Source of the DNA: an uncultured Alphaproteobacteria bacterium
GTDB taxonomy: Bacteria > Pseudomonadota > Alphaproteobacteria > JAGOMX01
Assembly (NCBI GenBank): GCA_963780985.1
Contig: CAWAEF010000031.1
Coordinates: 17,286-81,285, forward strand
Length of the DNA stretch: 64,000 bases
Direction of reading: 5' to 3'
Below the pieces are notes generated by a model that saw only the letters and a list, made by a program, of their open reading frames with translations, searched no databases and was not told where the DNA came from. Shown one piece after another: positions 11,930 through 41,302 of the stretch (position 1 is its first letter; each line of letters begins with the position of its first letter). The position numbers were made by a program, and so were the translations under genes.

Positions 11930-13474
11930 ATGAGCAAAGAAACTGAAGTAATTAGCAAGCCCGTTGAGGCTCCCGAGTTCGGGAAAATCAGAGCAGCCCT
12001 CTGGCCAATTTATGGTTATGAGATGAAGAAATTCCTGCCCATGGGCCTGATGATGTTCTTCATTCTGTTTGATTACACCATTCTCCGAAGTACCAAAGAC
12101 GCGATTCTCGTCCCCGTTGCGGGATCGGCTATTATTCCTTTCCTTAAAGGACTTATCGTAATGCCGGCGGCCATTCTTTTTGTGGTTTTATACTCGAAAC
12201 TTGTAAATACGTTCAAACCGGCAACGGTCTTTTATATGATCGCGGGCTTCTTTATAAGCTTCTTTGCTTTATACGCCTTCGTTATCTTTCCTAACAACGA
12301 GTTCCTTTTGCCCGATCCTGCGTATATCAAGGCTTTGCAAGCGGAGTATCCAAGGGTTCAACATATTATCGCTATTTATGCCTACTGGACGGATTCGCTG
12401 TTTTATACCTTTGCGGAGCTGTGGGGCAGTATTATGCTTTCCCTGTTGTTCTGGCAGTTCGCCAACGAGATAACCAGAACCCGTGAAGCATCGCGCTTTT
12501 ATGCGTTGTTTGGTCTACTTGGAAACTTGGGCTTGATTCTTTCCGGTTACGTTTTGACGACTGCTTCTTCCATTCAAAAAGCATCGGGCGGCGGACCAGA
12601 GGCTTTTGCTGGCACATTACATTACACAATGGGTGCGGTTATCGTTGCAGGCTTCATTGTTGTCTTCCTGTATAACTGGATGCAGAGAAACGTTCTGACA
12701 GATCCGCTGTATTACGATGCGGCTGAGAAAAGCGGTAAGGTTAAGATTAAGAAGCCAAAGATGTCCGTGGGCGAAAGCTTTAAATACCTATTGAAGTCTA
12801 AGTACATCATGTTCATCGCATTGTTGGTTTTGGCTTACGGTATTGCCATGAACCTGATTGAGTTGAACTGGAAGGAAATTCTGAGGAAGCAATATCCAGA
12901 ACGCATTGATTATCAGCACTTCATGGGTCTGGTTCAGTACGCTATGGGTGGTACGACCATTATTGCGATCTTGTTCTTCAAGGGCGTTGTCCGCAGGTTT
13001 GGTTGGTTCACCGGTGCTATTACGACGCCTCTGATGATGTTAGTGACAGGCGCAATCTTCTTCTCGTTCGTGTTGTTTGAGGACTTCATGTCACCGATCG
13101 CGGCCATGATTGGTGTGACCAGTCTGCTGATGGCGGTAGCCGTGGGAACCATTCAGAACGTGTTGAGTAAGGGTACAAAATACTCACTGTTCGACCCAAC
13201 CAAGGAGATGTCATACATACCCCTTGACCAAGAGCTTAAAACCAAAGGCAAGGCAGCCGTTGACGTTATCGGTGGCCGCTTAGGTAAAGCTGGTGGTGGT
13301 TACATCGTGGGAGCCATGTTTGCAATCACAGGTGCGGCCGACGTGCTGTCGATTACACCGATGATGGCTGTGGCCGTTTGTATCGTCATCCTGATCTGGA
13401 TCTTTGCCGTCTATGGCCTGAATGGTATGTACCAGAAAGCTGTTGCTGAGGCTGAGAAAAAGAAGGCCGAGTAG
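11930..13474 (+). CDS. tlc: ATP/ADP translocase (nucleotide transport protein, Tlc/NTT family)
   Basis: 514 aa, 12-TM type. The N-terminus FGKIRAALWPIYGYEMKKFLPMGLMMFFILFDYTILRSTKDAILV resembles Rickettsia/Chlamydia Tlc. Confidence 0.9.
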   Translation: MSKETEVISKPVEAPEFGKIRAALWPIYGYEMKKFLPMGLMMFFILFDYTILRSTKDAILVPVAGSAIIPFLKGLIVMPAAILFVVLYSKLVNTFKPATVFYMIAGFFISFFALYAFVIFPNNEFLLPDPAYIKALQAEYPRVQHIIAIYAYWTDSLFYTFAELWGSIMLSLLFWQFANEITRTREASRFYALFGLLGNLGLILSGYVLTTASSIQKASGGGPEAFAGTLHYTMGAVIVAGFIVVFLYNWMQRNVLTDPLYYDAAEKSGKVKIKKPKMSVGESFKYLLKSKYIMFIALLVLAYGIAMNLIELNWKEILRKQYPERIDYQHFMGLVQYAMGGTTIIAILFFKGVVRRFGWFTGAITTPLMMLVTGAIFFSFVLFEDFMSPIAAMIGVTSLLMAVAVGTIQNVLSKGTKYSLFDPTKEMSYIPLDQELKTKGKAAVDVIGGRLGKAGGGYIVGAMFAITGAADVLSITPMMAVAVCIVILIWIFAVYGLNGMYQKAVAEAEKKKAE

Positions 13475-15710: not shown

Positions 15711-15750
15711 TTGTTATTGCGCCGAGTCAGTTATTCTTCTCCATTCGGCC

Positions 15751-15980
15751 GTCATCCTGAACGGACGACTGCGAAGCGGGCGGTAGTGAAGGATCCAGTC
15801 AAACATGTGTCGCGTAGCGACTCTGCTTATAAATATATCAAACAAATAAATGATACAAGCAGCTGTCTATATGATGTCATACAATATGATTGGGACCATC
15901 TGCAGCAGAGTCGCTTCGCGACACATGTTTGACTGGATCCTTCACTACCGCCCGCTGCGCGGTCGTCCGTTCAGGATGAC
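15751..15980. repeat. 230-bp long-stem palindromic module (family B), stand-alone copy
   Basis: gtcatcctgaacggacgactgcgaagcgggcggtagtgaaggatccagt ... actggatccttcactaccgcccgctgcgcggtcgtccgttcaggatgac. Confidence 0.9.
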
Positions 15981-16046
15981 GGTCGGGTGTGGCTGACGCG
16001 GTCGTCCTTTAATGGGGCGGCGGCCTGCGTTTTAGGAGCAAGAGCA

Positions 16047-18916: not shown

Positions 18917-19061
18917 TTACGTAATTCAAAATCGTAAAACGTCACCAAGGGTAGCAAAAACAGTATGCGCATCTCCAGCCCGTCAATGCGAGTAACCGAC
19001 AATCCCTGTAGGGGGTCGATTTTACACGATGACCGGTCGGTTGTTAGAATGGTGATGGCCG

Positions 19062-19198
19062 CCAGCTGCCTCCCCTGCGAAAGCAGGGGCCCAGCCCTTA
19101 ACATGTGCTGCGTAGCAGCTCTGTATAGAAATACAGAGTCACTGCCGCGACACATTTTGCGCTGGACCCCTGCTTTCGCAGGGGAGGCAAGCTGGGGG
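19062..19198. repeat. 135-bp palindromic element, family A, copy 2 (inverted orientation)
   Basis: ccagctgcctcccctgcgaaagcagggg ... cccctgctttcgcaggggaggcaagctggggg. It is nested inside the pyrH-tsf palindrome. Confidence 0.85.
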
Positions 19199-19375
19199 CA
19201 ATCATCTCCCCTTGAACGCCTTGGCCATCAGAAGGAGCGAGGATCCATAGCAATCTAGTGCAGCACTTGACTATGTGTACCAGTCTGGACTATCGCACTG
19301 GGTTGTCACGGTGCCGCGCGCTGCGCAGCACCTCTCAATGACGGGCTGCTGGAGAGCCAAAATCTGACCCCGGAG

Positions 19376-21862: not shown

Positions 21863-22506
21863 TTACTTCGTTCCAAACAGTCTATCGCCCGCATCGCCTA
21901 AGCCTGGGACGATATATGCGAGCTCATTAAGGTGATCATCCAGAGCGGCGGCGAAGATGGGGATGTCGCTGTATTTCTCGTTGAAAACCGCAATGCCCTC
22001 AGGCACGGTAACCAGGGCAAGAAACAGAATTTTCTTACGATCAACGCCACGTTCCACCAGTATATCCAGCGCTTTTACCGCCGAATAACCTGTGGCCAGC
22101 ATAGGGTCTACCACGATGAAGATTTGATCCTCTATAGGGGGTAGTTTGACCAGATATTCAACAGGCCGATGTGTTTCGTGATCCCGATAAAGGCCGATGT
22201 GTCCCTCGTTGGATGTAGGTATAAGTTCCCGCAAGGCATCAGCCATGCCCAGGCCAGCTCTTAATATAGGGACGATGGTCACGTCATGGCCGTCGAATAC
22301 TCTTCCCGTGGTAGAAGCCACCGGCGTTTGAATCGTCACGGTTTTGGTGGAAAGTCCTTGGTGACTTCATATCCCATTAGCAAAGCAATTTCCCGCAGCA
22401 GGCGCCTGAAATGGCCAGACCTAGTCTCCTCCATACGCATGAGGGTCAGTTTATGTTGGATGAGTGGATGGTTGATAACGTGTAAATTCGCAAAAGAATG
22501 AGCCAT
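21863..22506 (-). pseudogene. upp: uracil phosphoribosyltransferase interrupted by one frameshift
   Basis: N-terminal piece [24 protein letters not shown]...[11 protein letters not shown] and C-terminal piece TIQTP...ILRAGLGM...DPMLATG...PGLGDAGDRLFGTK lie in different frames. They join near the T4 run at 22342-22345, and adding one base restores PPKTVTIQ. Confidence 0.85.
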
Positions 22507-22578: not shown

Positions 22579-23917
22579 TTAATCGTTCAATCGTCGCGGT
22601 CGGGCGGGGTGGGTTTCTTTGATGAAGCCTAGCATGAATAGCGATAACGACAGGCATATTGGGATTACCGCCAAGGCATAGCGATAGTCCACTTCGTTAT
22701 AGACTGGATGGCCGTCCACCATTAATCCATTCCAACTTAAGTCGAGCATTTTGCCTACCAGTGGGTGATAGAAAGCGCCGCAGGCCATCACCAACATGTT
22801 GCTAAAGCCCACGCTGACACCGCTGGAAGAGGGCGGCATGATTTCGGTCATGCTGGCAAAGCAAAGGCACTTGGCGGTATAGCTGAAGCCAGCGATGAAG
22901 AATAGGGCGTACATTACAGAAAGAGGTATACCATGGACAAATACCACGATCATGTAGACGCTCAACGAGGTAAGGCCGCCTATGTACATAGGAATGCGTC
23001 GGCTTCTAAGCCTATCTGAAAGGGTTGTGTAACAGGGCTGCCCAGGGCTGCGCCTAAGAATAAGCTGGTGTTGATCAGTGCGGCTTCGGTTTTGCCTATG
23101 CCATAGATGCTCTCGATAAAGGGGACGCTCCAGGCGTCTCCCATGATGATCATGGGTGCATACATCAGGGTGCTGAACCCAGAGATGAACCAGGCTTGTG
23201 GCGATTTCAGAACGCGCTTCAATCCACCAAACATGTGCTCTTTAGGGCCCGTTCGCACTGGCATATCGCCTGAAGGCGTATTGCGCACGAATATGAAAAT
23301 GATCGTACCAATGGCCAGACCCACAACTCCCAATACCTGTAGGCTCCCTGCCAACCAACCGTATCAATCAAATATCTCAAAGGGGGACCGCCTAAGGCAG
23401 CGCCCGATGTGCCTAAGACCATGGCCAGGGCTATGACGTTGCCGATTTTTTGGGGTGGAAACCACATGGTGCCAAGTTTGATGGTGCCAGGCAGGCCGCT
23501 GGCGGCGCCCATGCCCATCATAAAACGGGCAAAGCCAGCTACATAAAAGTTTGTGGTCATGGAAAAGATAAAACAAGCTATGCCGCAGATAAACCCGGCC
23601 AGTGACAGCAATCGCCTGGGGCCAAATTTGTCCATGGTGATGCCAAGGGGGATCTGCATACCCGAATAGGTCCAGTAATAAAAGCCAACCATCAAGCCAA
23701 ACGCAGCGGCGTCAATGCCGAGAGCCGTCATGATTTCGTTGTTGAGAACGTTCGGGAATACACGAATGACGAATTGATAGCAATAGAATACACCCGCGCA
23801 GGTAACCATAAACCATGCGCGCTTGCTACCCAAAAGGGATGTGTCAGCCTGAGTATCTGCTTCAGCTCTCTTCATACGGCCCTGTAAATTCAGATGTCCA
23901 AAAGACAAGTCAATCAC
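22579..23917 (-). pseudogene. MFS transporter interrupted by two frameshifts
   Basis: Three consecutive ORFs (23219-23917, 22980-23354, 22579-22989) together make one 12-TM-type MFS protein. The junctions lie near 23351-23352 and 23022-23024, and each is restored by adding one base. Confidence 0.8.
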
Positions 23918-26291: not shown

Positions 26292-26400
26292 GGCTCTTGT
26301 GCATAACGGGTGGGTTATATGTAATCTTCTGCCCCCGTAGACGTCATCCTTCACTACCGCCCGCTTCGCGGTCGTTCGTTCAGGATGACGGTCAAGGGGG
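26292..26400. mobile_element. truncated and collapsed copy of the TIR element
   Basis: The left TIR ggctcttgtgcataacgggtgggttatatgtaatcttctgccccc is present. It is joined to a collapsed long-stem module (26343-26389). The right outer arm is absent. Confidence 0.7.
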
Positions 26401-26918: not shown

Positions 26919-27308
26919 ATGCAGATGATTAAGTGCGCTTCTCTAACAATTTTTCTGGGCCTAACTTTGAATACATCGGTTTTTGCTAGCAATACGGATT
27001 CTGTAAGTGACGAACCTCTCTCACTCCGCTACGCATCCCCTCAGTCGATACAAACATTAATTATGGCGCCAGAGACGAATGCTAAGACTGATGGTCCCTT
27101 TGGGACTTTTATTAATGACATCGATCAGGGGCTTGAAGAAATCCTTTCTCCAGCCGAAGTTAAACCTAAAGGTGACATTGAATGGACACCGGAAATGCGT
27201 GTGAAACTAGATCAAATAATCGGTATGGTCGTCCAGATAAATCGTAGTATTTATGATCTAGAAATTGGTATGGCGCAACTTATATACGTAAATGGACGTG
27301 GCTACTAA
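26919..27308 (+). CDS. hypothetical secreted protein
   Basis: 129 aa with signal-like MQMIKCASLTIFLGLTLNTSVFA. Confidence 0.6.
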   Translation: MQMIKCASLTIFLGLTLNTSVFASNTDSVSDEPLSLRYASPQSIQTLIMAPETNAKTDGPFGTFINDIDQGLEEILSPAEVKPKGDIEWTPEMRVKLDQIIGMVVQINRSIYDLEIGMAQLIYVNGRGY

Positions 27309-27488: not shown

Positions 27489-28925
27489 ATGTTCATGCAT
27501 GCGGTAATTTTATCTGGTGGCGTCGGTAGTCGTTTGTGGCCTGTTTCTCGGGATATGCATCCCAAGCCATTTATGAAGCTGTCCGACAGGCAAAGTTTCC
27601 TGCAGAAAGTATATTTGAGAAGTGCGGCGATCCCTTCGACGCAAAGTATTACGACGGTCACGAATAAAGAGTTGTTCTTTAAGACGAAGCAAGAATTTGA
27701 CGAAGTTAAGAGTCTTGCCGATCATAACGTCGATCTCAATTTCATTACGGAACCTTTCGGACGCAATACGGCTGCGGCTATTGCTTTGGCTGCTTTGAAG
27801 ATTTCTGAGTTATATGGACCAGATTCAATCATGCTGGTGCTGCCTTCTGACCACGTTATTTCTAATCAAGAGGCTTTTGCACAAGCAGTATCCCAGGCTG
27901 AACATTTGGCTCGCCAGGGCAAAGTTGTTACTTTTGGCATTAAGCCAAGCTCCCCGGAAACTGGGTATGGATATATCGAGGCCAAGGGCTTTGATGTTGT
28001 CCGCTTTGTGGAAAAACCTTCATTAGAGCAAGCTGAGATTTACTTAAGTGAAGGTAAGTATTTGTGGAATTCGGGTATGTTCTGTTTTTCTGCGGAGACG
28101 ATGCTGAAGGAAATGCAGGCTCTGTGTCCGGATATTCTGGCTGCGGCCAAAAAATGTTTCGCGTGTTCGAAAGTCGCCGATACGGCTGCATACAGGCATT
28201 TAGAAGTGGATTCTGCAACCTTTAAGGACGTGCCATCCAATTCCATTGACTATGCCATCATGGAAAAGACGACCCATGCGGCCATTATCCCTTGCGACAT
28301 TGGCTGGAGTGACATCGGGACCTGGACGGCTATCAGTGAGTTTTCTGTGCTGGATTCCGATGGTAACAGCATCAATGGCGATGTCATCACCCACGATGTG
28401 AAGAACTGTTATATCCAAAGCCGTGATCGCGTGATCGGTGCGGTGGGCCTTGAGGATCTGATTATCGTGGATACGGAAGACGCGATTCTGGTGGCCAATA
28501 AGAAGAAATCCCAGGAAGTTAAGAATATTTATGCTCAATTAAAGCATGATGGTCACGAGGCGCATAAGCTGCACAAAACCGTGCAGCGGCCCTGGGGAAC
28601 CTATACGGTTTTGGAAGAGGCGCCAGGGTTTAAGATCAAGCGCATTGAGGTGCTGCCAGGGGCTCAGTTGAGCTTGCAGATGCACAACCATCGCGCGGAA
28701 CATTGGGTGGTAGTAAGTGGCACCGCTCTCGTGGTCAATGGCGAGGAAGAAATGACTCTGGGTGTGAGCCAATCCACCTATATTCCCACAGGCAACAAAC
28801 ACCGCTTGAGCAATCCGGCTGAGGATTTGCTTGTGATGATTGAAGTCCAGACAGGGGCATACCTGGGTGAAGACGACATCATTCGATTCGACGACATCTA
28901 TGGACGTGCCAAAGATGCCGCATAG
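27489..28925 (+). CDS. manC: mannose-1-phosphate guanylyltransferase / mannose-6-phosphate isomerase (bifunctional type II PMI-GMP)
   Basis: 478 aa with the N-terminal ILSGGVGSRLWPVSR nucleotidyl-transferase motif and a C-terminal cupin (RPWGTY...QMHNHRAEHWVVVSG). Confidence 0.92.
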   Translation: MFMHAVILSGGVGSRLWPVSRDMHPKPFMKLSDRQSFLQKVYLRSAAIPSTQSITTVTNKELFFKTKQEFDEVKSLADHNVDLNFITEPFGRNTAAAIALAALKISELYGPDSIMLVLPSDHVISNQEAFAQAVSQAEHLARQGKVVTFGIKPSSPETGYGYIEAKGFDVVRFVEKPSLEQAEIYLSEGKYLWNSGMFCFSAETMLKEMQALCPDILAAAKKCFACSKVADTAAYRHLEVDSATFKDVPSNSIDYAIMEKTTHAAIIPCDIGWSDIGTWTAISEFSVLDSDGNSINGDVITHDVKNCYIQSRDRVIGAVGLEDLIIVDTEDAILVANKKKSQEVKNIYAQLKHDGHEAHKLHKTVQRPWGTYTVLEEAPGFKIKRIEVLPGAQLSLQMHNHRAEHWVVVSGTALVVNGEEEMTLGVSQSTYIPTGNKHRLSNPAEDLLVMIEVQTGAYLGEDDIIRFDDIYGRAKDAA

Positions 28926-30288
28926 TCTCGCTTGCTTTAAAGCCTACGATATTCGTGGGCGTGTGCCTGACGTGCTGAGTTATGATTTAGCTTATGATAT
29001 TGGCCGTGCCTATGCGCGGGTTATTAATCCTGGAACGGTCGTTGTGGGTTATGATATCCGCTTAGAGAGCCCAGAGATGGCCAATCGCCTGATGCAGGGT
29101 CTCAATGACGAAGGTGTCAACGTTATCAATATTGGACTATGCGGTACGGAAGAAGTTTATTTCCAAACCTTTGATCGAGGTGTGGGCGGCGGCATCATGA
29201 TAACGGCCAGCCATAACCCCAAGGGGTACAATGGTATGAAGTTGGTGCGTGAGAATTCGATCCCTATTTCAGGGGATTCCGGACTATTCGCGATCCGCGA
29301 TCTGGCGGCCCAGTTGCAGGCAGAGCGGCTTCCGTCTAAGGGACCGATAGGCAACATCAATGAGGACTTTGATAAGAGCCGCTATATCTCCCATATTCTG
29401 GGCTATGTGGACACGGACTTACTAAAACCCCTCAAAATCGTCGTAAACCCTGGCAATGGCGGGGCAGGGCTTATCATTAAGCTGCTGGAGCCACATTTGC
29501 CCTTTGAATTTATTTACATCAATGAAGAGCCCGATGGGAATTTCCCCAACGGTGTGCCTAACCCGTTGTTGCCCGATGCGCGGTCGCTTACAGCCGATGC
29601 GGTGAAGCTGCATGGCGCCCATATGGGTATTGCTTGGGATGGCGATTTTGATCGCTGTTTCTTGTTCTCAGAAAATGGCGACTTCATTGAGGGCTATTAC
29701 ATCGTAGGCTTGTTGGCGGCGGCATTTCTTAAGAAGTCTAAGGGTGAGAAAATTATTCATGATCCCCGCCTTACTTGGAATACCATTGATATGGTGGAAC
29801 AAGCAGGCGGACTCGCCATTCAAAGTAAAACCGGCCACGCCTTTATCAAAGAACGTATGAGGGAAGAGAACGCAATCTATGGCGGCGAGATGAGTGCCCA
29901 CCACTATTTCCGCGATTTCGCGTACTGCGACAGCGGCATGATTCCCTGGTTGCTGGTGGCAGAGCTAATGTGCATCGCCGGCAAACCCCTGTCCCAGATG
30001 GTGGAAGAGCGCATCGCAGCTTACCCTTGCAGCGGCGAGATCAACTATAAGGTTGAGAACGCACCGGCAGTGATCGCTGGCATAATGAAGTCCTACGAGT
30101 CCCAGAATCCCAAGGTCGAGAACATCGATGGGCTGAGCCTAGAGTTTCCAGAATGGCGTTTGAACCTGCGAACATCCAACACGGAGCCTTTGCTGCGGTT
30201 GAATGTGGAGACCCGGGCGGATCAGAAACTGTTGTGGGAAAAGGTTTCTGAGGTTGAGGCGCTGTTGGGTCAGGGGACGAGTTCTTAA
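28915..30288 (+). CDS. manB: phosphomannomutase
   Basis: The start is taken at ATG 28915 (MPHSLACFKAYDIRG). The active-site loop TASHNPKGYNGMK and GIAWDGDFDR are present. It overlaps the manC stop by 11 nt. Confidence 0.9.
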   Translation: MPHSLACFKAYDIRGRVPDVLSYDLAYDIGRAYARVINPGTVVVGYDIRLESPEMANRLMQGLNDEGVNVINIGLCGTEEVYFQTFDRGVGGGIMITASHNPKGYNGMKLVRENSIPISGDSGLFAIRDLAAQLQAERLPSKGPIGNINEDFDKSRYISHILGYVDTDLLKPLKIVVNPGNGGAGLIIKLLEPHLPFEFIYINEEPDGNFPNGVPNPLLPDARSLTADAVKLHGAHMGIAWDGDFDRCFLFSENGDFIEGYYIVGLLAAAFLKKSKGEKIIHDPRLTWNTIDMVEQAGGLAIQSKTGHAFIKERMREENAIYGGEMSAHHYFRDFAYCDSGMIPWLLVAELMCIAGKPLSQMVEERIAAYPCSGEINYKVENAPAVIAGIMKSYESQNPKVENIDGLSLEFPEWRLNLRTSNTEPLLRLNVETRADQKLLWEKVSEVEALLGQGTSS

Positions 30289-30313
30289 ATCTTAGTACCA
30301 TGCCCCAACACCC

Positions 30314-30543
30314 GTCATCCTGAACGGACGACCGCGAAGCGGGCGGTAGTGAAGGATCCAGTTAAACATGTGTCGCGTAGCGACTCTGCTTATAAATACA
30401 CGAAACAAGTAAGTGAAATAGCCGACCGTCGAGATGATGACAAACAAGATGATTGATGCCATGTAAAGCAGGGTCGCTTCGCGACGCATGTCTGACTGGA
30501 TCCTTCACTACCGCCCGCTTCGCGGTCGTCCGTTCAGGATGAC
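30314..30543. repeat. 230-bp long-stem palindromic module (family B), stand-alone copy
   Basis: gtcatcctgaacggacgaccgcgaagcgggcggtagtgaaggatccagt ... ctggatccttcactaccgcccgcttcgcggtcgtccgttcaggatgac. It lies between manB and wzm. Confidence 0.9.
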
Positions 30544-30714
30544 GGACGACTGGGGGTATGTGCTCGTTTTTTCAAAATTAGAATCGCTGCAAAAAAGTTG
30601 CGGAATTTTGGTATCTGTGTTACTAAAACATGTCTAAACAAGGGAACATCGTGACCACTAAATTGTTTAGCCTCACGCCCGTGCGTGACATCAATATAAC
30701 AGCTGGAACCGTTT

Positions 30715-31500
30715 ATGTTTGATAGTTTATGGACTTATCGTTATTTTATTTTTTCGGCCATACGAAACGACCTGACGGCTCGTTTTGCGCATTCTAAGCT
30801 TGGTGCCTTATGGGTCATCTTCAATCCCTTGGCCCAGGTCATGATCTATGCTTTGATTTTATCGAACGTTTTGGCGGCTAAGCTTCCCGGTATCGACAAT
30901 AAATATGCCTTTGCTATCTATTTGTTGGCTGGAACGCTGGGTTGGGCACTGTTCTCAGAAATCATCACCCGCTCGGTCAGTATGTTTGTGGAAAGCGCCA
31001 ATCTGTTAAAGAAAATCAACTTCCCCAAGGTAACGCTGCCGACCATAATGTTGGGATCATGCTTGTTGAACAACTTGATTTTGTTAAGCGTCATCTTGGT
31101 CATATTTACCCTGCTGGACCATTCTTTTAGCATGACTATTTTTTGGCTGATACCTGTTACAGGAACTTTGGTGTTGTTTGGCTTTGGCATTGGTTTGATC
31201 CTTGGTGTGATTAATGTATTTGTGCGCGACGTGTCCCAGGTTGTGCCTATCTTTTTGCAGGTTCTGTTTTGGTTTACGCCCATTGTCTATCCCATATCTA
31301 TTATCCCGGCAGAGTATGTATCCTGGATGAGCTTGAATCCGTTGGTTCCCATCATCGAGGCGTATCATAACATTTTGATGTACGACCAAGCGCCGGATAT
31401 GACGAGTTTTCTGCATCTGAATGTGATTGGGCTGGCCATTACTCTTGTTGGGCTGTTGATGTTCAGGAGAGCAAGCCCTGAAATGGTGGACGTGCTATGA
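30715..31500 (+). CDS. wzm: polysaccharide ABC-2 type transporter permease
   Basis: 261 aa, 6-TM ABC-2 type. The N-terminus RNDLTARFAHSKLGALWVIFNPL is typical of Wzm/TagG. It is coupled to the ATPase by an ATGA overlap. Confidence 0.88.
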   Translation: MFDSLWTYRYFIFSAIRNDLTARFAHSKLGALWVIFNPLAQVMIYALILSNVLAAKLPGIDNKYAFAIYLLAGTLGWALFSEIITRSVSMFVESANLLKKINFPKVTLPTIMLGSCLLNNLILLSVILVIFTLLDHSFSMTIFWLIPVTGTLVLFGFGIGLILGVINVFVRDVSQVVPIFLQVLFWFTPIVYPISIIPAEYVSWMSLNPLVPIIEAYHNILMYDQAPDMTSFLHLNVIGLAITLVGLLMFRRASPEMVDVL

Positions 31501-32720
31501 GTATTTTAAGGGTTAGCCAATTAGGAAAATCTTACCGGCAATATGCTTCGGAATTAATCCGTTTTGCGCGCTGGTTTGGTTTGCCGTTTAAACCCTCCGC
31601 CGAGCATTGGGTTCTTAACGAAATTTCCTTTGAGGTTCTGAAGGGCCAATCGGTCGGGATCATCGGTAAGAATGGTGCTGGAAAAAGTACTCTGTTGAAG
31701 ATGATTACGGGCGTTCTACAGCCCTCCACGGGCACGATTCAAGTGAATGGAAAGATTGCCGCCATCCTAGAGTTAGGCATGGGCTTTAATCCCGATCTTA
31801 ACGCCAGGCAGAACGTCTACCATGCGCTGGGCCTAATGGGTCATAGTCACGGGGCAATAGACGATGCTATGCCGGATTTAGAAGCATTCGCTGAAATCGG
31901 GGAATACTTCGATCAACCGATTCGCACCTACTCCAGTGGCATGCAGATGCGCGTGGCATTTGCTGTGGCAACGGCCTTCAGGCCTGATATTTTAATCGTG
32001 GATGAAGCATTGTCCGTCGGGGATGCTTATTTCCAACACAAGAGCTTTGATCGTATCCGCGAGATGAAAGAGCAGGGGACGTCCCTTTTGATCGTGTCCC
32101 ATGACTTGTCATCCATACAAGCGCTCTGCGATAAAGTGATTCTGTTACAAAATGGTGGACTTATAATGGAAGGGCGGCCTGAAACCGTTCTGGATTATTA
32201 TAATGCATCTCTGGCTGAGCATCAGAACCAAAAGGTTCGCCAAGTGGAGCATGGTGTCAACAAAGTTCAAACAATATCTGGTACGGGTGAAGTAACCATT
32301 TCTAAGGTGGAGCTATTGGATCACGATGGCCAATGTATCGAGGTAGCCAGTGTTGGTCAGGAATTAACTTTGGCGGTGGGTGCTAAAGCCCATTCTAATA
32401 TTGAAAAGCTGGTGCTTGGTTTTGCGATTAAAAACCATCTAGGGCAGGTGATCTATGGAACAAACACCTATCATACGAAACAAATCCAGCATAAAATAGC
32501 GGCTGGTTCCGAGCTGTCTTTTTTGGTAAAGTTCCCTGCTAATTTGGGTGTGGGGACGTATTCGGTGCAACTGGCTTTGTGTAGTTCAGATACCCATTTA
32601 GAGAATAATTATGAATGGCGTGACCTGGCTTATGTCTTTGAAATAGCTAATGTAGGCAGAGACTTCTTTGCAGGCATGGCATGGTTGGATTCAGCGATCG
32701 AGGTAAAAAAAGCTTCATGA
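31497..32720 (+). CDS. wzt: polysaccharide ABC transporter ATP-binding protein with C-terminal extension (Wzt-type)
   Basis: 407 aa with Walker A GKNGAGKST, signature YSSGMQMRVAFA and Walker B ILIVDEALSVGD. About 150 extra C-terminal aa resemble the Wzt carbohydrate-binding domain. Confidence 0.88.
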   Translation: MSILRVSQLGKSYRQYASELIRFARWFGLPFKPSAEHWVLNEISFEVLKGQSVGIIGKNGAGKSTLLKMITGVLQPSTGTIQVNGKIAAILELGMGFNPDLNARQNVYHALGLMGHSHGAIDDAMPDLEAFAEIGEYFDQPIRTYSSGMQMRVAFAVATAFRPDILIVDEALSVGDAYFQHKSFDRIREMKEQGTSLLIVSHDLSSIQALCDKVILLQNGGLIMEGRPETVLDYYNASLAEHQNQKVRQVEHGVNKVQTISGTGEVTISKVELLDHDGQCIEVASVGQELTLAVGAKAHSNIEKLVLGFAIKNHLGQVIYGTNTYHTKQIQHKIAAGSELSFLVKFPANLGVGTYSVQLALCSSDTHLENNYEWRDLAYVFEIANVGRDFFAGMAWLDSAIEVKKAS

Positions 32721-32763
32721 CTTGTAACTACTCACCAAATATTGCCAGGGGTGGTAACATCTT

Positions 32764-32900
32764 CCAGCTTGTCGTCCCCGCGAAGGCGGGGATCCAGCGC
32801 AAAATGCGTCGCGGAGCGACTCTGTACTTTCTATACAGAGCTGCTTCGCAGCGCATTTTAAGAGCTGGACCCCCGCCTTCGCGGGGGCGACAAGCTGGGG
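32764..32900. repeat. 135-bp palindromic element, family A, copy 3
   Basis: ccagcttgtcgtccccgcgaaggcggggatccagcgcaaaatgcgtcgcggagcgactctg ... gctggacccccgccttcgcgggggcgacaagctgggg. Confidence 0.85.
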
Positions 32901-32940
32901 GCTTGTGCCCTCCTATCCACCATTATGCTGAGTGGTTACC

Positions 32941-35900
32941 ATGACGTTTATATCTTATGCACAGAATTTTGAAGACGTCATGTTATGGCGGGTCTTTAAA
33001 GATATTAAGAACGGCTATTACGTTGATGTTGGCTCACAAGATCCTGTGGTTGACTCGGTCAGTTATGCTTTCAGCCAAAATGGCTGGAAGGGGCTTAGTG
33101 TAGAGCCGACCGAGCAGTATGTTACTCTGTTTAAAGAAACCCGCCCCCAAGACGATATTATTCAAGCATTTGTTTCCGATCATAAAACCCAGCTGGAATT
33201 TTATGTTTTTCCAGATACGGGCTTGTCTACAGCTAATTCTGAGATATCCGAGGGACACAAGCTGGCTGGTTTTGAATGCGTTACAAAACTTGTTGAGACC
33301 ATTACCCTTGACGATGTTTTAAGGCATGCCGGTAATAGGGAAATTCATTGGCTGAAGATTGATGTGGAAGGGCATGAAGAACAGGTTGTCAAGGGATGGA
33401 CTAATGATGTTCGGCCGTGGGTGTTGGTTTTAGAAAGTTTCCTGCCTTTATCAGGAGTTCAGACCCTTCATAAGATTGAAAGTTACCATACTTGGGAGCC
33501 ATCTCTTCTTGAAAAAGGCTATGAATTTGTATACGCAGATGGACCAAATCGTTTTTATCTGCATAAGGATCATTTGGATTTAAAACCATCCTTTCGTTTT
33601 CCCCCGAATGTTTTGGAAGATGACTATATAACTTATCAGGCTTCTCAAGCGGAGGATCGGGTTACTCAGGCGGAGCATAGAGCTTGGAAGGCGGATTGTG
33701 GACTCAGGGAAAGCGAGCTAGCCATTCAGTCCCTCAGGAGCGAGCTTGGCGACCAGGCGCTGAAGCTGAAAATTATAGATGACCAGCGGTCCTATCTGGA
33801 GAGCATGCAAGCGGCTCTAAAGATAGCAACCGAGCGGCAAGCTGAATTATTGGCTGAAAAATGCGCTTTTGAGATACGCATTGCTGAAACGAAGGACCTG
33901 ATAGCGAAACTTGAAGCGGAAAATGCCCACAAGCAAGAATTGTTGGTTGAGACGGCTAATCTCGAGTCAACCGTCGAGCTGATGAATCAACAAATTGCGG
34001 AACTAGAAGCGGAAAATGCCCACAAGCAAGAATTACAGGGTGAGATGGCTAGATTAGAGTCATGCTTGGAAACGACCAATCTGCAAATCGCTGAGTTAAA
34101 TACGGATAAAATCGTTATGTCAAAACACGAGGATGAGCTACTTAAGCAAATTCGAGATCGGGATACCCATATTCGAGAGTTAGAGACTGAACTATGCCAT
34201 CGCAAAGCCTCTTCTTCCGAAGCATCCAGGGCGCTTGAAGCACTACATCGCAGCCTTTCCTGGAAAATCACCCGTCCTTTACGGGAATCCAAAAAGATTC
34301 TCCGGGATTGTTACCTGAAGCTAAGATCGGTCCTCTGGCGAGTGGCTAAGCCGATCTTCAGCAAAATTCTGTTAGAAGTGGGGCTTATCGTGAAAAGACA
34401 CCCAGGTCTAAAGGAAAAGGTACTCCTCCAGTTGCACAGATTCCCGCGGCTAGCATCACGAATGCAGCGGGTGTTTGAGCAAGAGGTGCACAAAAAGGTA
34501 TTTGGCACCGCCAACGTCGAACAACTTCTGGTCATCGATGGCTCTTCCATTGAAGACATTTTGAAATCCCGTTTGAAATCCCAAGCCTATACCCATTTGC
34601 CGAAAAGGGCAGGGTGTGATGGTATGAGAATCATACTGGATATGCGGGAAGACTCTATTCAAAGCACCGCAGGTCAATTTACCATGAATCATACCAAGGC
34701 GTTGCTTCGAAACGCAGGGAAACATGAATATATCCTGCTATTGTCAGATAGCTCGCCCGAATTTAAGCACCGACTGACCCGAGAATTCCATGGGCTCTTA
34801 GCTGACGACCGCGTCATTGTCTGGAATGATCTTCCCGATGAGTTTTATAAGAACGTTGACCAAACGACACGCGCCACTGTTGCGGGGATCTTGCGGGAAC
34901 AATTTATCTCCGGGTTGCAGCCAGACCTGATCTATACCACCAGCCTGCCCGTGGATGATGGCTCACCCGGGTCCTGTCGATCCAGCATCCCAACAGCTGT
35001 CACCTTGTTCCATATGCAGCCATACGTCCTTTCGCAAATCGACTTTCTTAAACGAGCGGACCTTATTTTAGTCCCTTCACCTGCCTTACGAGAACAGGTC
35101 ATTGAACATCTGCATAAGCCAGAAGACCAGGTCGTTAACATTGCCTGCGATGACAATGGCCTATTATTGGATCTTGCAAACTGTCGCGAGAAACATCAGC
35201 AGGAAAACTATTGGAACACACTTGCCAAGACCACGTTACAGGCCTTTGAAAATGCGCGCGAGCAACATGTAGGCTCCGTTGCAATCCGGATGCCACACGT
35301 TGAAGAACTATCCAGAGCCGTATCCGAGCAATACTCGCGTCTTAGGAACAGTATGGTGCGCCGCAATCTAAATTTGGGCAACGGGCTCAAAATAGTCTTA
35401 GATCTGCAAGGTGCGCAAGGCTCACAGGCTGAAAGAGGCATTGGACGCTACAGTATCGTCATGGCAAAGGCCATACTTCAAAACCCCAGAGACCATAAGA
35501 TTTTTATTGCCCTGAATGGAGCATTTCCTGAATCCGTTGAGAAGTTGAAAAATGAATTCAAGGATCTTGTCCATCCAGATGACATCATCGTATGGAATGG
35601 TTTGTCGCACACGGCACGCTACCACCAAACCAATAGCGACCGAGCCCAGCTGTCGGCCTTCATTCGTGAGGGCACATTGTGGAGTCTGAATCCTGATGTT
35701 CTTCACATATCCAGCCTATTTGAAGGTCTTCATGAGGATCATGTTACTTCCATTAAAAGCTATTTTGGCGAAGTACCGACGACTGTTACTCTTTATGACT
35801 TGATTCCCTTTATCAATCCAGACCAGTATCTGGCATTGCCCGAGGCGAAAGAGTTATACATGCAGCAAATCGAACATCTAAAACAGGCTGATTTGCTGTT

Positions 35901-36690
35901 ATCTATCTCCGATTCTTCCCGACAGGAAGTGCTTGATCATCTGGGCATCCAGCAGTTCAGAAAAACTGTAACCATATCCTGTGATACCTCTTCCAACTTC
36001 CGCGCCCTGAATCTTTCTGAGCCGGAAATTGCGGACTTGCGGTCAAGATATCACATTACCGGTAAATTCATCTTAACGGTGGGAGCCGTGGGCGCGGGCA
36101 ATGATCGCAAAAATGCCAAAGCCTTAGTAGAAGCATATGCGCGATTGCCCAAGCATTTACAGAATGAATATCAGCTGGTGATTATTGGCTCAGCGGACGA
36201 TATTGCAAAGCTTGCGATGAAGGAATTTACAAGAAACCTATCCTTGGGAGACGACAGAATCCTGATTACGGGTCATATCTCAGAACGGGATTTGGTGTCC
36301 CTTTATAATCAAACGGAGCTTTTTGTATTTCCGTCTCTGCACGAGGGTTTTGGTCTTCCTGCACTAGAAGCCATGCGCTGCGGTGTTCCCGTCATAGGCT
36401 CCAACACCAGCAGCATTCCAGAAGTGATTGGCATCGAGGATGCTCTGTTTGATCCTACATCTATTGAGTCTATGGCGGCAAAAATGGAGCAGGCCCTGAC
36501 CTCGGAAGAATTTAGGCAAGCATTGCTTTCCCACGGTAAGGAACAGCAGAAGAGGTTTTCCTGGGAGTCCATAGCTGACCGTGCTTTCGACGCCTTTGAG
36601 GAGTTCTATGGAAGGTCGCGGAACTCAGGGGTGACCATAACGAAGGACACGAGTCAGTCAACAAAAAAGCTGCAGCAACTCGCGGGCTAA
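32941..36690 (+). CDS. fusion protein: FkbM-type methyltransferase + long coiled coil + two GT4 glycosyltransferase modules
   Basis: The ORF starts at 32932 (GTG) and ATG 32941 gives MTFISYAQNFEDV. The FkbM pattern is YYVDVGSQDP...WLKIDVEGHEEQVV. A heptad-rich region lies at about 33640-34290. The C-terminal GT4 signature is FVFPSLHEGFGLPALEAMRCGVPVIGSNTSSIPEV. Confidence 0.85.
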   Translation: MTFISYAQNFEDVMLWRVFKDIKNGYYVDVGSQDPVVDSVSYAFSQNGWKGLSVEPTEQYVTLFKETRPQDDIIQAFVSDHKTQLEFYVFPDTGLSTANSEISEGHKLAGFECVTKLVETITLDDVLRHAGNREIHWLKIDVEGHEEQVVKGWTNDVRPWVLVLESFLPLSGVQTLHKIESYHTWEPSLLEKGYEFVYADGPNRFYLHKDHLDLKPSFRFPPNVLEDDYITYQASQAEDRVTQAEHRAWKADCGLRESELAIQSLRSELGDQALKLKIIDDQRSYLESMQAALKIATERQAELLAEKCAFEIRIAETKDLIAKLEAENAHKQELLVETANLESTVELMNQQIAELEAENAHKQELQGEMARLESCLETTNLQIAELNTDKIVMSKHEDELLKQIRDRDTHIRELETELCHRKASSSEASRALEALHRSLSWKITRPLRESKKILRDCYLKLRSVLWRVAKPIFSKILLEVGLIVKRHPGLKEKVLLQLHRFPRLASRMQRVFEQEVHKKVFGTANVEQLLVIDGSSIEDILKSRLKSQAYTHLPKRAGCDGMRIILDMREDSIQSTAGQFTMNHTKALLRNAGKHEYILLLSDSSPEFKHRLTREFHGLLADDRVIVWNDLPDEFYKNVDQTTRATVAGILREQFISGLQPDLIYTTSLPVDDGSPGSCRSSIPTAVTLFHMQPYVLSQIDFLKRADLILVPSPALREQVIEHLHKPEDQVVNIACDDNGLLLDLANCREKHQQENYWNTLAKTTLQAFENAREQHVGSVAIRMPHVEELSRAVSEQYSRLRNSMVRRNLNLGNGLKIVLDLQGAQGSQAERGIGRYSIVMAKAILQNPRDHKIFIALNGAFPESVEKLKNEFKDLVHPDDIIVWNGLSHTARYHQTNSDRAQLSAFIREGTLWSLNPDVLHISSLFEGLHEDHVTSIKSYFGEVPTTVTLYDLIPFINPDQYLALPEAKELYMQQIEHLKQADLLLSISDSSRQEVLDHLGIQQFRKTVTISCDTSSNFRALNLSEPEIADLRSRYHITGKFILTVGAVGAGNDRKNAKALVEAYARLPKHLQNEYQLVIIGSADDIAKLAMKEFTRNLSLGDDRILITGHISERDLVSLYNQTELFVFPSLHEGFGLPALEAMRCGVPVIGSNTSSIPEVIGIEDALFDPTSIESMAAKMEQALTSEEFRQALLSHGKEQQKRFSWESIADRAFDAFEEFYGRSRNSGVTITKDTSQSTKKLQQLAG

Positions 36691-36755
36691 ACGGGAGGCT
36701 ACGGGTTATTTTATAGCTTGCCTTTTCACGTATAACTGATCTATATAACATCAGT

Positions 36756-36780
36756 AAAATGGGGAGACTCCCCTTTTAAA
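36756..36780 (+). terminator. putative rho-independent terminator after the fusion gene
   Basis: aaaatggggag a ctcccctttt hairpin with a T run. A second hairpin (actgat...atcagt) lies just upstream. Confidence 0.5.
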
Positions 36781-36803
36781 GACAAGTACAAGACAGAATT
36801 TGA

Positions 36804-38747
<1,944 letters not shown>

Positions 38748-38766
<19 letters not shown>

Positions 38767-39890
38767 AAATCGGTGTAGATGCCAAAAGCCTTTGTGGTAC
38801 CATTACGGGTATCGGCAGATATACCATTGAGATGTGCAAAGCCCTCAGCACCATTCCCGGTGTGTCACTTTATCTTTACAGCCCCAGTCCCATTAATGAA
38901 GAAATTGTAAAAGCCATTGGTCCCAAACATTACAGGTCTGGAACTATCAACAGCCGGGTGGTAAGGCAACTCTGGTGTGATACCTCCCTGCCGATGTGGG
39001 CGAATACCGATGGGGTCGAGGTGTTATGGGGACCTAGCCATCGCTTACCCCGCTTCATAGCCTCTCATATTGTCCGGGTTGTTACTATTCATGACTTGGT
39101 CTGGATATATGCCAGTCAAACCATGAGCAGCCTCACCAGATTTCTAGAACGGCTCCATATGCCCGCAGCAATTAAAAAAGCAGACCGGATTGTTGCCGTC
39201 TCATCAGCTACCGCCAAGTCAATTGCCGAGAATTACCGCAGCCGTGCCAATAGGGTAGCCACAGTGCTTGAGGGTGCCGATCACATGACGACTACACCCG
39301 ACACAACAGTGCTGGAATCCTATAACATATCGGGACCTTATTGTCTATTTGTGGGAACCCTAGAGCCCCGCAAGAATCTGGCGAATTTACTAGCTGCATA
39401 CGCAAAATTACCCCAGGAAGTCAAAGAAAAATGCACATTGCTTGTCGCTGGAGGCAAGGGCTGGGGGGATGTGAATCTGGCAGAGACTATTAAGAAGCTT
39501 GAACTCGAAGCCCACGTACTGCTGCTCGGCTACGTGGACGAGCCAACCCTGGCGGCTTTGTATTCTCAGGCGCGATTTTTAGTCATGCCATCTCTCTACG
39601 AAGGCTTTGGGCTACCCTTGGTGGAGGCAATGACCTATGGCACCCCGGTGCTCACATCTAATAACTCATCCATGATCGAAGTGGCGGGAGACGCGGGAAT
39701 TCTCGTTGATCCCTTAGACCTTGATTCTATTACCCAGGGCCTGTTACAACTCATCACCGACGACAAGCTGCACAGCAAGTTGTCCCAGAATGCGACAAAG
39801 CATGTAGCCCAATTCACCTGGAGCCGAGCCGCGGAACAGTTGACCCAGGTGCTACATGAAGCTGTAGCTGAAAGGAAAATAGCTTCATGA
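38748..39890 (+). CDS. GT4 family glycosyltransferase (WbpZ/WbpY-like)
   Basis: 380 aa with the C-terminal VMPSLYEGFGLPLVEAMTYGTPVLTSNNSSMIEV. Confidence 0.88.
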
Positions 39891-41005
39891 AGGTCCTACA
39901 TTTCTGCAAGTCCTACTTCCCGGACAATTACGGTGGCATCGAAACCACTATTAACCAGATATGCTTGGGCACCAAAGCCCTGGGTATAGAGTCTGAGATT
40001 CTCTGCCTGACACCAAATAAAGAAGAATCAACCATTGAGATCAACGGCATAAAGGTCCATCGTGTACCACAATTAATGTCGCTAGCATCCACACCGCTTT
40101 CATTTAAAATCCTCAAGCGATATGCTGAGATAGCCAAAGATTTCGACGTAATAAACTTCCATTTCCCGTGGCCCATGGCTGATCTAACCCATTTGGTCTC
40201 GGGTTTGAACAAGCCCTCGGTTGTGCTGTATCATTCAGATATCGTCAAACAAAAGACAATTCTGAAATTCTACAAACCCTTAATGAACCGATTTTTATCA
40301 AGCGTGGACGCAATCGTTGCCACATCACCTAACTATGCGGCGAGTAGCGAAGTGCTGCATCAGTACGCACACAAAGTAAGTGTTATTCCCTTTGGTTTGT
40401 CCCGGGCATCTTATCCCCAGCCGTCCGAAGAGCGACTCAATTACTGGCGCGAGAGGTTTCCATCCCGCTTCTTTTTATTCATAGGTATCTTGCGCTATTA
40501 TAAGGGCGCTCATGCCCTGATCGATGCGGCCAAGGGATTGTACGTACCTGTCGTCTTGATTGGTGCTGGCGGTATTGAGTCTGAACTGAAAGCCCAGGCT
40601 GAAGAAATCAACGCTTCCAACGTACATTTTCTGGGGGCACTGTCCGATGAAGATAAGGTGGCATTGTTGATGCTCTCTTATGGTGTAATTTTACCATCCC
40701 AGCTGCGCTCTGAGGCCTTTGGTATCTCGTTGCTAGAGGGAGCCATGTATGGCAAGCCTCTGATTTCCTGCGAAATCGGAACGGGCACCACCTATATCAA
40801 TATCCACGGGCAAACCGGCATAGTTATACCCCCCGAGTACCCATATGCTCTCCACCAAGCCATGAAGAATCTCCTAGACAACCCAGACAAAGCCGCAGAA
40901 CTGGGACAAGGCGCAGCCAAAAGGTTCGAAGAACTCTTTACGGAACAGAAGATGGCAAAGTCCTATGCGGACTTGTATCGCAAGGTTATGGAGAATAAGA
41001 GATAG
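39887..41005 (+). CDS. GT4 family glycosyltransferase
   Basis: 372 aa with ILPSQLRSEAFGISLLEGAMYGKPLISCEIGTG. An ATGA overlap joins it to the previous GT. Confidence 0.85.
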   Translation: MKVLHFCKSYFPDNYGGIETTINQICLGTKALGIESEILCLTPNKEESTIEINGIKVHRVPQLMSLASTPLSFKILKRYAEIAKDFDVINFHFPWPMADLTHLVSGLNKPSVVLYHSDIVKQKTILKFYKPLMNRFLSSVDAIVATSPNYAASSEVLHQYAHKVSVIPFGLSRASYPQPSEERLNYWRERFPSRFFLFIGILRYYKGAHALIDAAKGLYVPVVLIGAGGIESELKAQAEEINASNVHFLGALSDEDKVALLMLSYGVILPSQLRSEAFGISLLEGAMYGKPLISCEIGTGTTYINIHGQTGIVIPPEYPYALHQAMKNLLDNPDKAAELGQGAAKRFEELFTEQKMAKSYADLYRKVMENKR

Positions 41006-41046
41006 GGACTCCAGGGCCTATGCATGAAAATTAAAAGTGCACAAAG

Positions 41047-41180
41047 CTCCAGCTTGCCTCCCCTGGATGCGCAGGGGTCCAGCGCAAAATGCGTCGCGTA
41101 GCGACTCTGTATTATCTTCGGAGCTTCTACGCAGCACACTATCAGTGCTGGGCCCCTGCGCATCCAGGGGAGGAAAGCTG
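41047..41180. repeat. 135-bp palindromic element, family A, copy 4
   Basis: ccagcttgcctcccctggatgcgcaggggtccagcgcaaaatgcgtcgcgtagcgactctg ... cccctgcgcatccaggggaggaaagctggg. Confidence 0.85.
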
Positions 41181-41302
41181 GGAGCTAAGTGTTTCCCTGT
41201 ATATCCTTCTTTTTCATGCGTAGGCCCTGGATAGGCTCTTGACATCCCTATCTTAACTTTCTAAGAATATCTTTACACGTTAATTATTTTCAGGAGTTTA
41301 GA

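Follow-up and report, generated by a model that had tools for sequence, protein, structure and literature searches.

A predicted operon for an ABC-transporter-dependent, end-capped and probably D-rhamnose-based surface polysaccharide in an uncultured alphaproteobacterium

Introduction

The O-antigen of Aquifex aeolicus is a polymer of D-rhamnose and D-mannose with a 3-O-methyl-rhamnose or 3-O-methyl-mannose cap, which is bound by the C-terminal domain of the exporter ATPase Wzt; residue W362 of this Wzt is essential for function by mutation (PMC9445017). In Klebsiella pneumoniae O7, ORF6 unites a methyltransferase, a coiled coil and glycosyltransferase (GT) modules, and is the functional equivalent of WbbB and of WbdD with WbdA. 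In systems of this type the coiled coil is a molecular ruler between polymerase and terminator, and a Wzt with a Wzt_C domain together with a coiled-coil terminator is a described marker of capped O-polysaccharide assembly (PMC11231755). PA5457 and PA5459 of Pseudomonas aeruginosa are small methyltransferases without coiled-coil or GT-interaction domains (PMC3560663). Here we set beside these systems a nine-gene cluster at positions 27489-41005 of a 64,000-nt stretch of DNA (the window) from contig CAWAEF010000031.1 of an uncultured alphaproteobacterium.

We consider it likely that this region is one operon for an ATP-binding cassette (ABC)-transporter-dependent, end-capped surface polysaccharide, most likely an O-antigen based on alpha-linked D-rhamnose. 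This reading draws on the domains and the order of the genes, on catalytic motifs that are intact, on purifying selection and on homology to solved or characterized proteins; the stereochemistry of the sugar, a methyl cap, a ruler role of the coiled coil and linkage to lipopolysaccharide (LPS) are its predicted parts.

Results

Gene content of the operon

The cluster consists of nine + strand genes, mostly overlapping, and all nine open reading frames (ORFs) are intact (lengths in amino acids, aa; SDR, short-chain dehydrogenase/reductase; GT4, glycosyltransferase family 4):

27489-28925, + strand: manC (wbpW/algA-type), bifunctional mannose-6-phosphate isomerase/mannose-1-phosphate guanylyltransferase; TIGR01479, 555 bits (cut-off 373)
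28900-30288, + strand: manB, phosphomannomutase; all four PGM_PMM domains, NF011943 (CpsG-like) 597 bits
30715-31500, + strand: wzm, ABC-2 permease of the glycan exporter; PF01061 ABC2_membrane, 1.7e-20
31497-32720, + strand: wzt, ATPase with C-terminal carbohydrate-binding domain; ABC_tran 2.5e-23, Wzt_C PF14524 3e-34
32941-36690, + strand: gene for a 1249-aa putative terminator/ruler/polymerase fusion; PF05050 1.1e-23, Glycos_transf_1 4e-32
36825-37862, + strand: gmd, GDP-mannose 4,6-dehydratase; TIGR01472, 469 bits (cut-off 415), PF16363 5e-138
37840-38766, + strand: rmd-like gene, predicted GDP-4-keto-6-deoxy-D-mannose 4-reductase, 308-aa extended SDR; assigned by PDB matches and motifs
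38748-39890, + strand: GT4, 380 aa; Glycos_transf_1 2e-36 and Glyco_transf_4, EX7E at residue 285
39887-41005, + strand: GT4, 372 aa; Glycos_transf_1 3e-26, Glyco_transf_4 4e-17, EX7E at residue 276

A preliminary description of this DNA, made from the letters and ORFs, had named co-oriented manC, manB, wzm, wzt, gmd, rmd-like and GT4 genes, and all of them were recovered at the same coordinates on the + strand. Its assignment to ABC-transporter-dependent glycan export is borne out by the PF01061 match of Wzm and the ABC_tran and Wzt_C domains of Wzt. Overlaps of 4-23 nt at four junctions (wzm/wzt, gmd/SDR, SDR/GT4 and GT4/GT4) fit a single operon.

The manC product additionally matches the Pfam NTP_transferase, MannoseP_isomer and ManC beta-helix families. 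The NF011943 score of the manB product lies below the model cut-off of 801 bits; its listed ORF begins at TTG 28840, and ATG 28900 is the likely start as read off the translation. The cluster holds three intact GT4 modules in all, one in each small enzyme and one in the 1249-aa protein. The 380-aa GT4 is a candidate adaptor or chain-building rhamnosyltransferase. The 372-aa GT4, with homologues in nine syntenic loci (41-56% identity), is a candidate for the first sugar transfer to the lipid-linked primer.

Architecture of the 1249-aa protein

The most informative gene of the locus encodes the 1249-aa protein. The preliminary description had recognized its GT4 module and missed the FkbM methyltransferase, the coiled coil and a GT4 remnant. 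The true start is ATG 32941, in agreement with an identical database protein (P0125) and with L004, a metagenome contig from a strain about 99% identical to the window. In an AlphaFold model built from 62 homologues, residues 1-225 form an FkbM methyltransferase (predicted local distance difference test, pLDDT, >90), which keeps the near-invariant residues of the family. This is followed by a coiled coil of about 250 residues (~242-489), composed of helices at 242-337, 344-439 and 442-489 (pLDDT ~80); residues 226-445 contain no proline, and this segment holds an internal IAELEAENAHKQEL repeat. Residues ~562-739 (window 34624-35157) repeat, in truncated form, the N-terminal half of the GT4 module that follows and have no C-terminal half (blastp against longer homologues, 1e-12 to 1e-18). 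Residues ~816-1249 form a complete GT4 with a GT-B fold (pLDDT >90) and the EX7E motif EGFGLPALE at residue 1135.

The modeled order, a terminator domain followed by a long central coiled coil and a polymerase GT module, is that of the known terminator/molecular ruler/polymerase format, to which the protein would belong by analogy, with a probable ruler function for its coiled coil. A Foldseek search with the full model returned only generic GT-B/GT4 enzymes. WbdD and WbbB gave no match by phmmer against PDB sequences, where the whole protein retrieved generic GT4 enzymes only and the methyltransferase domain nothing; the likeness is thus one of architecture, not of family. Since the methyltransferase is of FkbM type and no kinase domain is present, a plain methyl cap would be expected, not a methyl-phosphate. 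Proteins combining FkbM and GT domains are numerous (814 database clusters at E<=1e-30).

Exporter and cap recognition

Wzt carries the Walker A, signature and Walker B motifs, and its Wzt_C domain spans residues 259-397. The protein matches A. aeolicus Wzt (8dku) over its full length (1.5e-79), with the alignment running through the carbohydrate-binding domain of 8dku. When the published cap contacts were mapped onto this alignment, N313, A348, H355 and W362 of the A. aeolicus pocket were kept in the query. The C-terminal domain should therefore recognize a capped chain end, and its residue pattern is compatible with a methylated hexose at that end. The FkbM methyltransferase probably acts on the glycan end as the capping enzyme. 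The permease, the ATPase, the carbohydrate-binding domain of Wzt and a candidate capping enzyme, as required for ABC-transporter-dependent export with terminal-cap recognition, are thus all encoded in the operon.

Reductase and product sugar

The 308-aa reductase has both the GxxGxxG and the YxxxK motif of extended SDRs. Its gene overlaps gmd by 23 nt, and adjacency to gmd recurs in 30 of 33 related loci. Among PDB proteins its best match is 4lw8 (7e-83, 46% identity), followed by Rmd of Aneurinibacillus thermoaerophilus (2pk3, 1e-40) and Rmd of P. aeruginosa (6x3b, 8e-32), with the next match at 2.5e-18. Identity is 34% to the A. thermoaerophilus enzyme and 31% to that of P. aeruginosa, and these two are 34% identical to each other, so that the reductase falls within the range of divergence known for Rmd. 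Only these two proven Rmd enzymes are strong characterized relatives, in line with the Gmd-plus-Rmd step proposed in the preliminary description. The opposing identity named there, a GDP-L-fucose synthase, is ruled out: NF047922 (GDPFucSynFcl) scores 36.5 bits against a cut-off of 500.

A literature search on '4LW8' returned nothing. Another Burkholderia cenocepacia strain carries a 98%-identical copy of 4lw8 immediately after a gmd gene, with a Wzx-type flippase encoded close by; the replicon is filed as a plasmid and, at 3.2 Mb, has the size of chromosome 2. This neighborhood is compatible with bceN/bceM of the cepacian cluster; BceM is a predicted, uncharacterized Rmd of this cluster, whose product contains D-rhamnose (PMC3584063). 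We considered 4lw8 as a Burkholderia orthologue of O-antigen type and rejected this, since it is 57-60% identical to those proteins and the context of its 98%-identical copy fits bceM. Burkholderia, Massilia, Undibacterium, Pseudomonas and Aeromonas harbor closer homologues of the reductase (52-56% identical).

Three close homologues (P0005, P0031 and P0100) are named 'GDP-6-deoxy-D-talose 4-dehydrogenase' by JGI. With an identity of only 31-34% to proven Rmd enzymes and a C4 stereochemistry that cannot be read from sequence, the name would suit a Tld-type reductase, hence a polymer of 6-deoxy-D-talose, alone or with rhamnose, handled by the same export and capping machinery. However, the same automatic label is attached to Psyr_0915, which is treated as the rmd of the GDP-D-rhamnose pathway in Pseudomonas syringae B728a (PMC12608077). 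The label is therefore non-discriminating; we gave it no weight and rejected it as evidence for Tld. Furthermore, the closest solved relative, 4lw8, sits in a context compatible with the D-rhamnose genes of cepacian, and the query is as similar to the proven Rmd enzymes as these are among themselves. We regard a Tld-type reductase as unlikely, and 6-deoxy-D-talose as equally unlikely to be the product sugar; D-rhamnose is, in our judgment, quite probably that sugar.

Related clusters

The nearest cluster (L087), from an alphaproteobacterial metagenome-assembled genome (MAG; GCA_019749915.1), has exactly the gene order of the window: manC, manB, wzm, wzt (with Wzt_C), the FkbM/coiled-coil/GT4 gene, gmd, reductase, GT4 and GT4. 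The reductase is 65% identical, manC, manB, wzm, wzt and gmd are 70-82% identical (manC 70%), and the GT genes range from 45% to 58% (the 380-aa GT4 at 58%). L087 differs in having an additional 1469-aa multi-GT4 gene, a longer large protein and a G+C content of 37%, against ~48% in the window. A cluster in B. cenocepacia (L085; CP034545.1) consists of manC, wzm, wzt (with Wzt_C), a methyltransferase, a three-module GT4, gmd, a reductase 55% identical to ours, GT4 and GT4, with a PF00953 initiating transferase ~9 kb downstream. Instead of the fused FkbM domain of the window, this cluster encodes a stand-alone 510-aa methyltransferase from a different family. Both clusters carry an additional multi-module GT4 polymerase of 1236-1469 aa that the window does not have, and the window cluster looks like a reduced version. 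We found no literature-established product for either cluster, and in the literature on Burkholderia D-rhamnan O-antigens we found no structure tied to this cluster type.

A homologue of the large protein was present at 80 genome loci, and 33 of these have gmd (>=70% identical) and a reductase of this type as well. Together with the order shared by L087 and L085, this indicates that the cassette is common and modular. It is an ordinary, widespread type of O-antigen gene set among Proteobacteria, not a new kind of system.

Palindromic elements

Two families of long palindromes account for at least 10 occurrences in the 64 kb, all intergenic, and three lie in or next to the operon (no strand assigned):

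30312-30545: family-A palindromic repeat, 234 nt, in the manB-wzm spacer; 80-nt arms, 94% complementary
32722-32939: family-B element (MITE-like, resembling miniature inverted-repeat transposable elements), separating the wzt stop from the start of the 1249-aa gene; inverted repeat 32764-32898
41010-41231: family-B element bordering the operon on its 3' side; inner arms 41049-41181

Palindromes at three intergenic points had been pointed out in the preliminary description; all three are present (30312-30545, 32764-32898 and 41049-41181), and a fourth lies at 42264-42503. Family A occurs at 15749-15982, 30312-30545, 42264-42503 and 53567-53800, the other copies being 87-88% identical to the one at 30312, which is also present in L004. 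Family B, with a core of ~137 nt, occurs at 5328-5467, 19058-19199, 32764-32898, 41048-41186, 55654-55789 and 57328-57490, and a remnant of palindromic repeats lies at 26346-26391. Two contigs, L002 and L003, stop at the same point (window position 41051), which is what a repeat would be expected to cause.

The 218-nt insert at 32722-32939 is absent from L004, where TCATGAC joins the two genes and the wzt stop codon and the next ATG overlap as ATGA. The insert in the window has CATGAC on either side, a 6-bp target duplication. These two observations identify the element as a recent insertion, and the duplication of CATGAC preserved both the wzt stop codon and the ATG of the next gene. A polymorphism of this kind between strains that are ~99% identical indicates that the palindromic elements are mobile now or were so recently.

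Strain variation and selection

The window and L004 differ at 150 nucleotides, all within 32940-43320, with none in 43500-48766. The differences fall in patches over the methyltransferase domain, gmd, both small GT4 genes and a 301-aa ORF downstream of the operon. The densest patch (33000-33750, 58 differences) produces 22 amino-acid changes at methyltransferase residues 102-217. These patches look like recombination tracts. The pooled ratio of nonsynonymous to synonymous changes (pN/pS) is 0.18, with values of 0-0.01 in wzm, wzt, gmd and the gene of the 372-aa GT4; nonsynonymous/synonymous counts are 0/3 for wzm, 1/21 for gmd and 0/20 for the 372-aa GT4. Low pN/pS and patchy differences point to a locus that is functional and recombining, as is usual for surface polysaccharide loci. 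We raise only tentatively that the recombination-like methyltransferase patch and the palindromic insertion at the junction of wzt and the next gene reflect ongoing strain-level diversification of the surface polysaccharide. If such changes altered cap chemistry or the terminator:polymerase ratio, they would offer an intracellular bacterium a natural route to vary the end structure or chain length of its O-antigen.

The aconitase gene downstream (42646-45374, - strand) is split into two ORFs of 221 and 688 aa by a 1-nt deletion at 43316, and is a single 893-aa gene in L004; the split is either a real frameshift, making a pseudogene, or an assembly error.

The same data bear on whether the locus is decaying in a reduced endosymbiont genome, with the polymer no longer made. 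One GT module of the 1249-aa protein is truncated, the 1469-aa multi-GT4 gene of L087 is missing, repeat elements occupy three spacers and the neighboring aconitase is frameshifted. Against this, the nine ORFs are intact with their catalytic motifs present, most genes are under strong purifying selection and the insertion after wzt left the adjoining stop and start codons in place. We judge decay very unlikely and retain the reading of a working operon for a capped polysaccharide.

Host and genomic context

YidC shares 53% identity with its counterpart in Candidatus Nucleicultrix amoebiphila and 52% with the one in Candidatus Paracaedimonas acanthamoebae; metagenomic homologues reach 60-81%, the nearest named one (60%) coming from an 'Alphaproteobacteria bacterium' MAG. 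This sequence evidence places the host as an amoeba-symbiont-like alphaproteobacterium near Nucleicultrix and Paracaedimonas. The preliminary description had reported an ATP/ADP translocase and eukaryote-like effectors. The translocase is clear (11930-13474, + strand; TLC, 5.5e-178), and a leucine-rich repeat (LRR) protein is encoded at 119-2143 (- strand); the F-box match of the latter is weak and sub-threshold. A group comprising waaA, a DUF374 gene and an msbA-like gene lies at 7179-10956 (- strand), and uppS is also in the window. The LRR protein, the translocase and the waaA/msbA-like group suggest that the bacterium lives inside cells and has kept its lipid A-core pathway.

A polysaccharide cluster had been called unexpected in such a genome, which was too strong. 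Obligate intracellular Coxiella builds O-polysaccharide from GDP-mannose-derived sugars (PMC3204966, PMC3539893), and with this precedent and with WaaA, an MsbA-like transporter and UppS in the window, the cluster is not very surprising.

The ORFs flanking the operon are at 26919-27308 (+ strand, 129 aa), 41303-42208 (+ strand, 301 aa) and 45854-48016 (- strand, 720 aa). Judged by eye, all three have hydrophobic N-termini resembling signal peptides and may be secreted proteins; as candidate ligases or membrane proteins they were rejected, having no transmembrane segments and no Pfam match. Elsewhere, a large terminase subunit (57596-58888, + strand; Terminase_6N and Terminase_6C) is followed by a 386-aa ORF with no Pfam match (59543-60703, + strand), and the two may belong to a prophage remnant or a gene-transfer-agent-like cluster. 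A 232-aa ORF (23219-23917, - strand) matches only the first half of the MFS_1 profile, and a 158-aa uracil phosphoribosyltransferase ORF (21863-22339, - strand) leaves the first ~48 positions of its profile uncovered; both ORFs may be truncated or have mis-set starts. An Rfam scan of the window returned one tRNA only.

Discussion

Taken together, the genes suggest the following pathway. ManB and ManC would make GDP-D-mannose, which Gmd would convert to GDP-4-keto-6-deoxy-D-mannose, and the Rmd-family reductase would act at C4 to give GDP-D-rhamnose. On a polyprenol-phosphate primer provided by an initiating transferase encoded outside the window, the chain would be assembled in the cytoplasm by the 380-aa and 372-aa GT4 enzymes together with the GT4 module of the 1249-aa protein. 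Once the chain reaches the FkbM methyltransferase at the far end of the coiled coil, its non-reducing end would be O-methylated and growth would stop. The methylated end would then be bound by the C-terminal domain of Wzt, the chain exported by Wzm/Wzt and attached to lipid A-core by a ligase encoded elsewhere.

Several observations weigh against this proposal. The C4 stereochemistry of the sugar is not readable from sequence, and three close homologues of the reductase bear a Tld name at JGI. Only 4 of ~10 cap-binding residues are kept in Wzt, with I299, L300, T346, H350, M353 and V380 differing. Residues 518-790 of the 1249-aa protein are modeled poorly (pLDDT <50), and the GT remnant within them may be non-functional. 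The hairpin-forming 218-nt insert after wzt (predicted RNA fold -148.7 kcal/mol, z = -16.4) could lower expression of the 1249-aa gene. Neither an initiating transferase nor a ligase gene was found in the window: PF00953 (WecA/WbpL) and PF04932 (WaaL) had no match in scans of 53 of the 55 ORFs that reach 150 aa, together with four shorter ones, the other two being 59-89% covered by opposite-strand genes with strong Pfam matches. This absence had already been stated in the preliminary description. Finally, gmd is lacking from the ~10-kb flanks fetched for 24 of the 80 loci that encode related large proteins, which indicates that this GT family is not rhamnose-specific; presumably it also serves polymers that do not derive from gmd, such as mannans.

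The last point bears on a mixed D-rhamnose/D-mannose polymer, made by GT4 enzymes that accept both GDP-sugars, as in A. aeolicus. GDP-mannose and its 6-deoxy derivative would both be supplied by the operon, some loci that encode related large proteins have neither gmd nor rmd in the fetched flanks, and the A. aeolicus O-antigen is a semi-random polymer of ~80% rhamnose and 20% mannose that bears both kinds of methylated cap (PMC9445017). On the other side, the P. aeruginosa locus of the same gene classes makes a predominantly D-rhamnose homopolymer. We hold a mixed chain to be rather unlikely. The D-rhamnose polymer of the preliminary description thus stands as far as its pathway gene classes go; a chain of rhamnose alone is not established, as mannose may also be incorporated.

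The missing WaaL and WecA/WbpL genes would also suit a glycan other than LPS O-antigen, capsule-like or protein-linked, that uses the same ABC export route. Genes for initiating transferases and ligases, however, are often unlinked to the cluster, the syntenic Burkholderia cluster lies beside a PF00953 gene and the window contains the lipid A-core genes waaA and msbA-like. No KpsE/KpsD-type capsule export genes were seen, and a Wzt_C-bearing Wzt with a coiled-coil terminator marks capped O-polysaccharide assembly (PMC11231755). We find a non-LPS glycan quite improbable and favor an end-capped, D-rhamnose-based O-antigen.

An alphaproteobacterium with intracellular hallmarks would accordingly have retained, under selection, the full machinery for a long 6-deoxyhexose O-antigen with a capped end. 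This implies a life stage in which the surface glycan matters, be it transmission, host recognition or defense against phage or predators. The operon leaves the current understanding of O-antigen assembly unchanged. Its FkbM/coiled-coil/GT4 protein is an uncharacterized, very widespread variant of the terminator/ruler/polymerase principle, for which this compact single-GT version could serve as a convenient model.

Compared with the CPA locus of P. aeruginosa (rmd-gmd-wbpW-wzm-wzt-wbpXYZ), the cluster shares Gmd, an Rmd-family reductase, a bifunctional isomerase/guanylyltransferase, Wzm/Wzt and three GT4 modules. In P. aeruginosa, too, methylation is tied to export and chain length, and the initiating transferase WbpL is encoded elsewhere in the genome. 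The present cluster differs in containing manB, in a reductase only 31% identical to P. aeruginosa Rmd and in its methyltransferase, which forms one protein with a ~250-residue coiled coil and a GT4, in contrast to the small stand-alone methyltransferases of CPA type. The CPA gene content claimed in the preliminary description hence matches at the level of gene classes; membership in the CPA locus family is not established, and the closest clusters are those of the alphaproteobacterial MAG and Burkholderia.

A. aeolicus WzmWzt provides the best solved match to Wzt across both ATPase and cap-binding domain, with the key cap-pocket tryptophan shared. The A. aeolicus polymer has beta-(1->2) linkages, unlike what the present GT modules predict: all are GT4, a retaining family (CAZy), so that an all-alpha chain is expected. 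As in WbdD of Escherichia coli O9a/O8, WbbB of K. pneumoniae O12 and ORF6 of O7, the terminator of the 1249-aa protein is N-terminal and the polymerizing GT part C-terminal. O7 ORF6 has the same layout, compared here by description, with GT2 modules in place of GT4. By analogy, the operon would work like the E. coli O8, K. pneumoniae O7, A. aeolicus and P. aeruginosa CPA systems.

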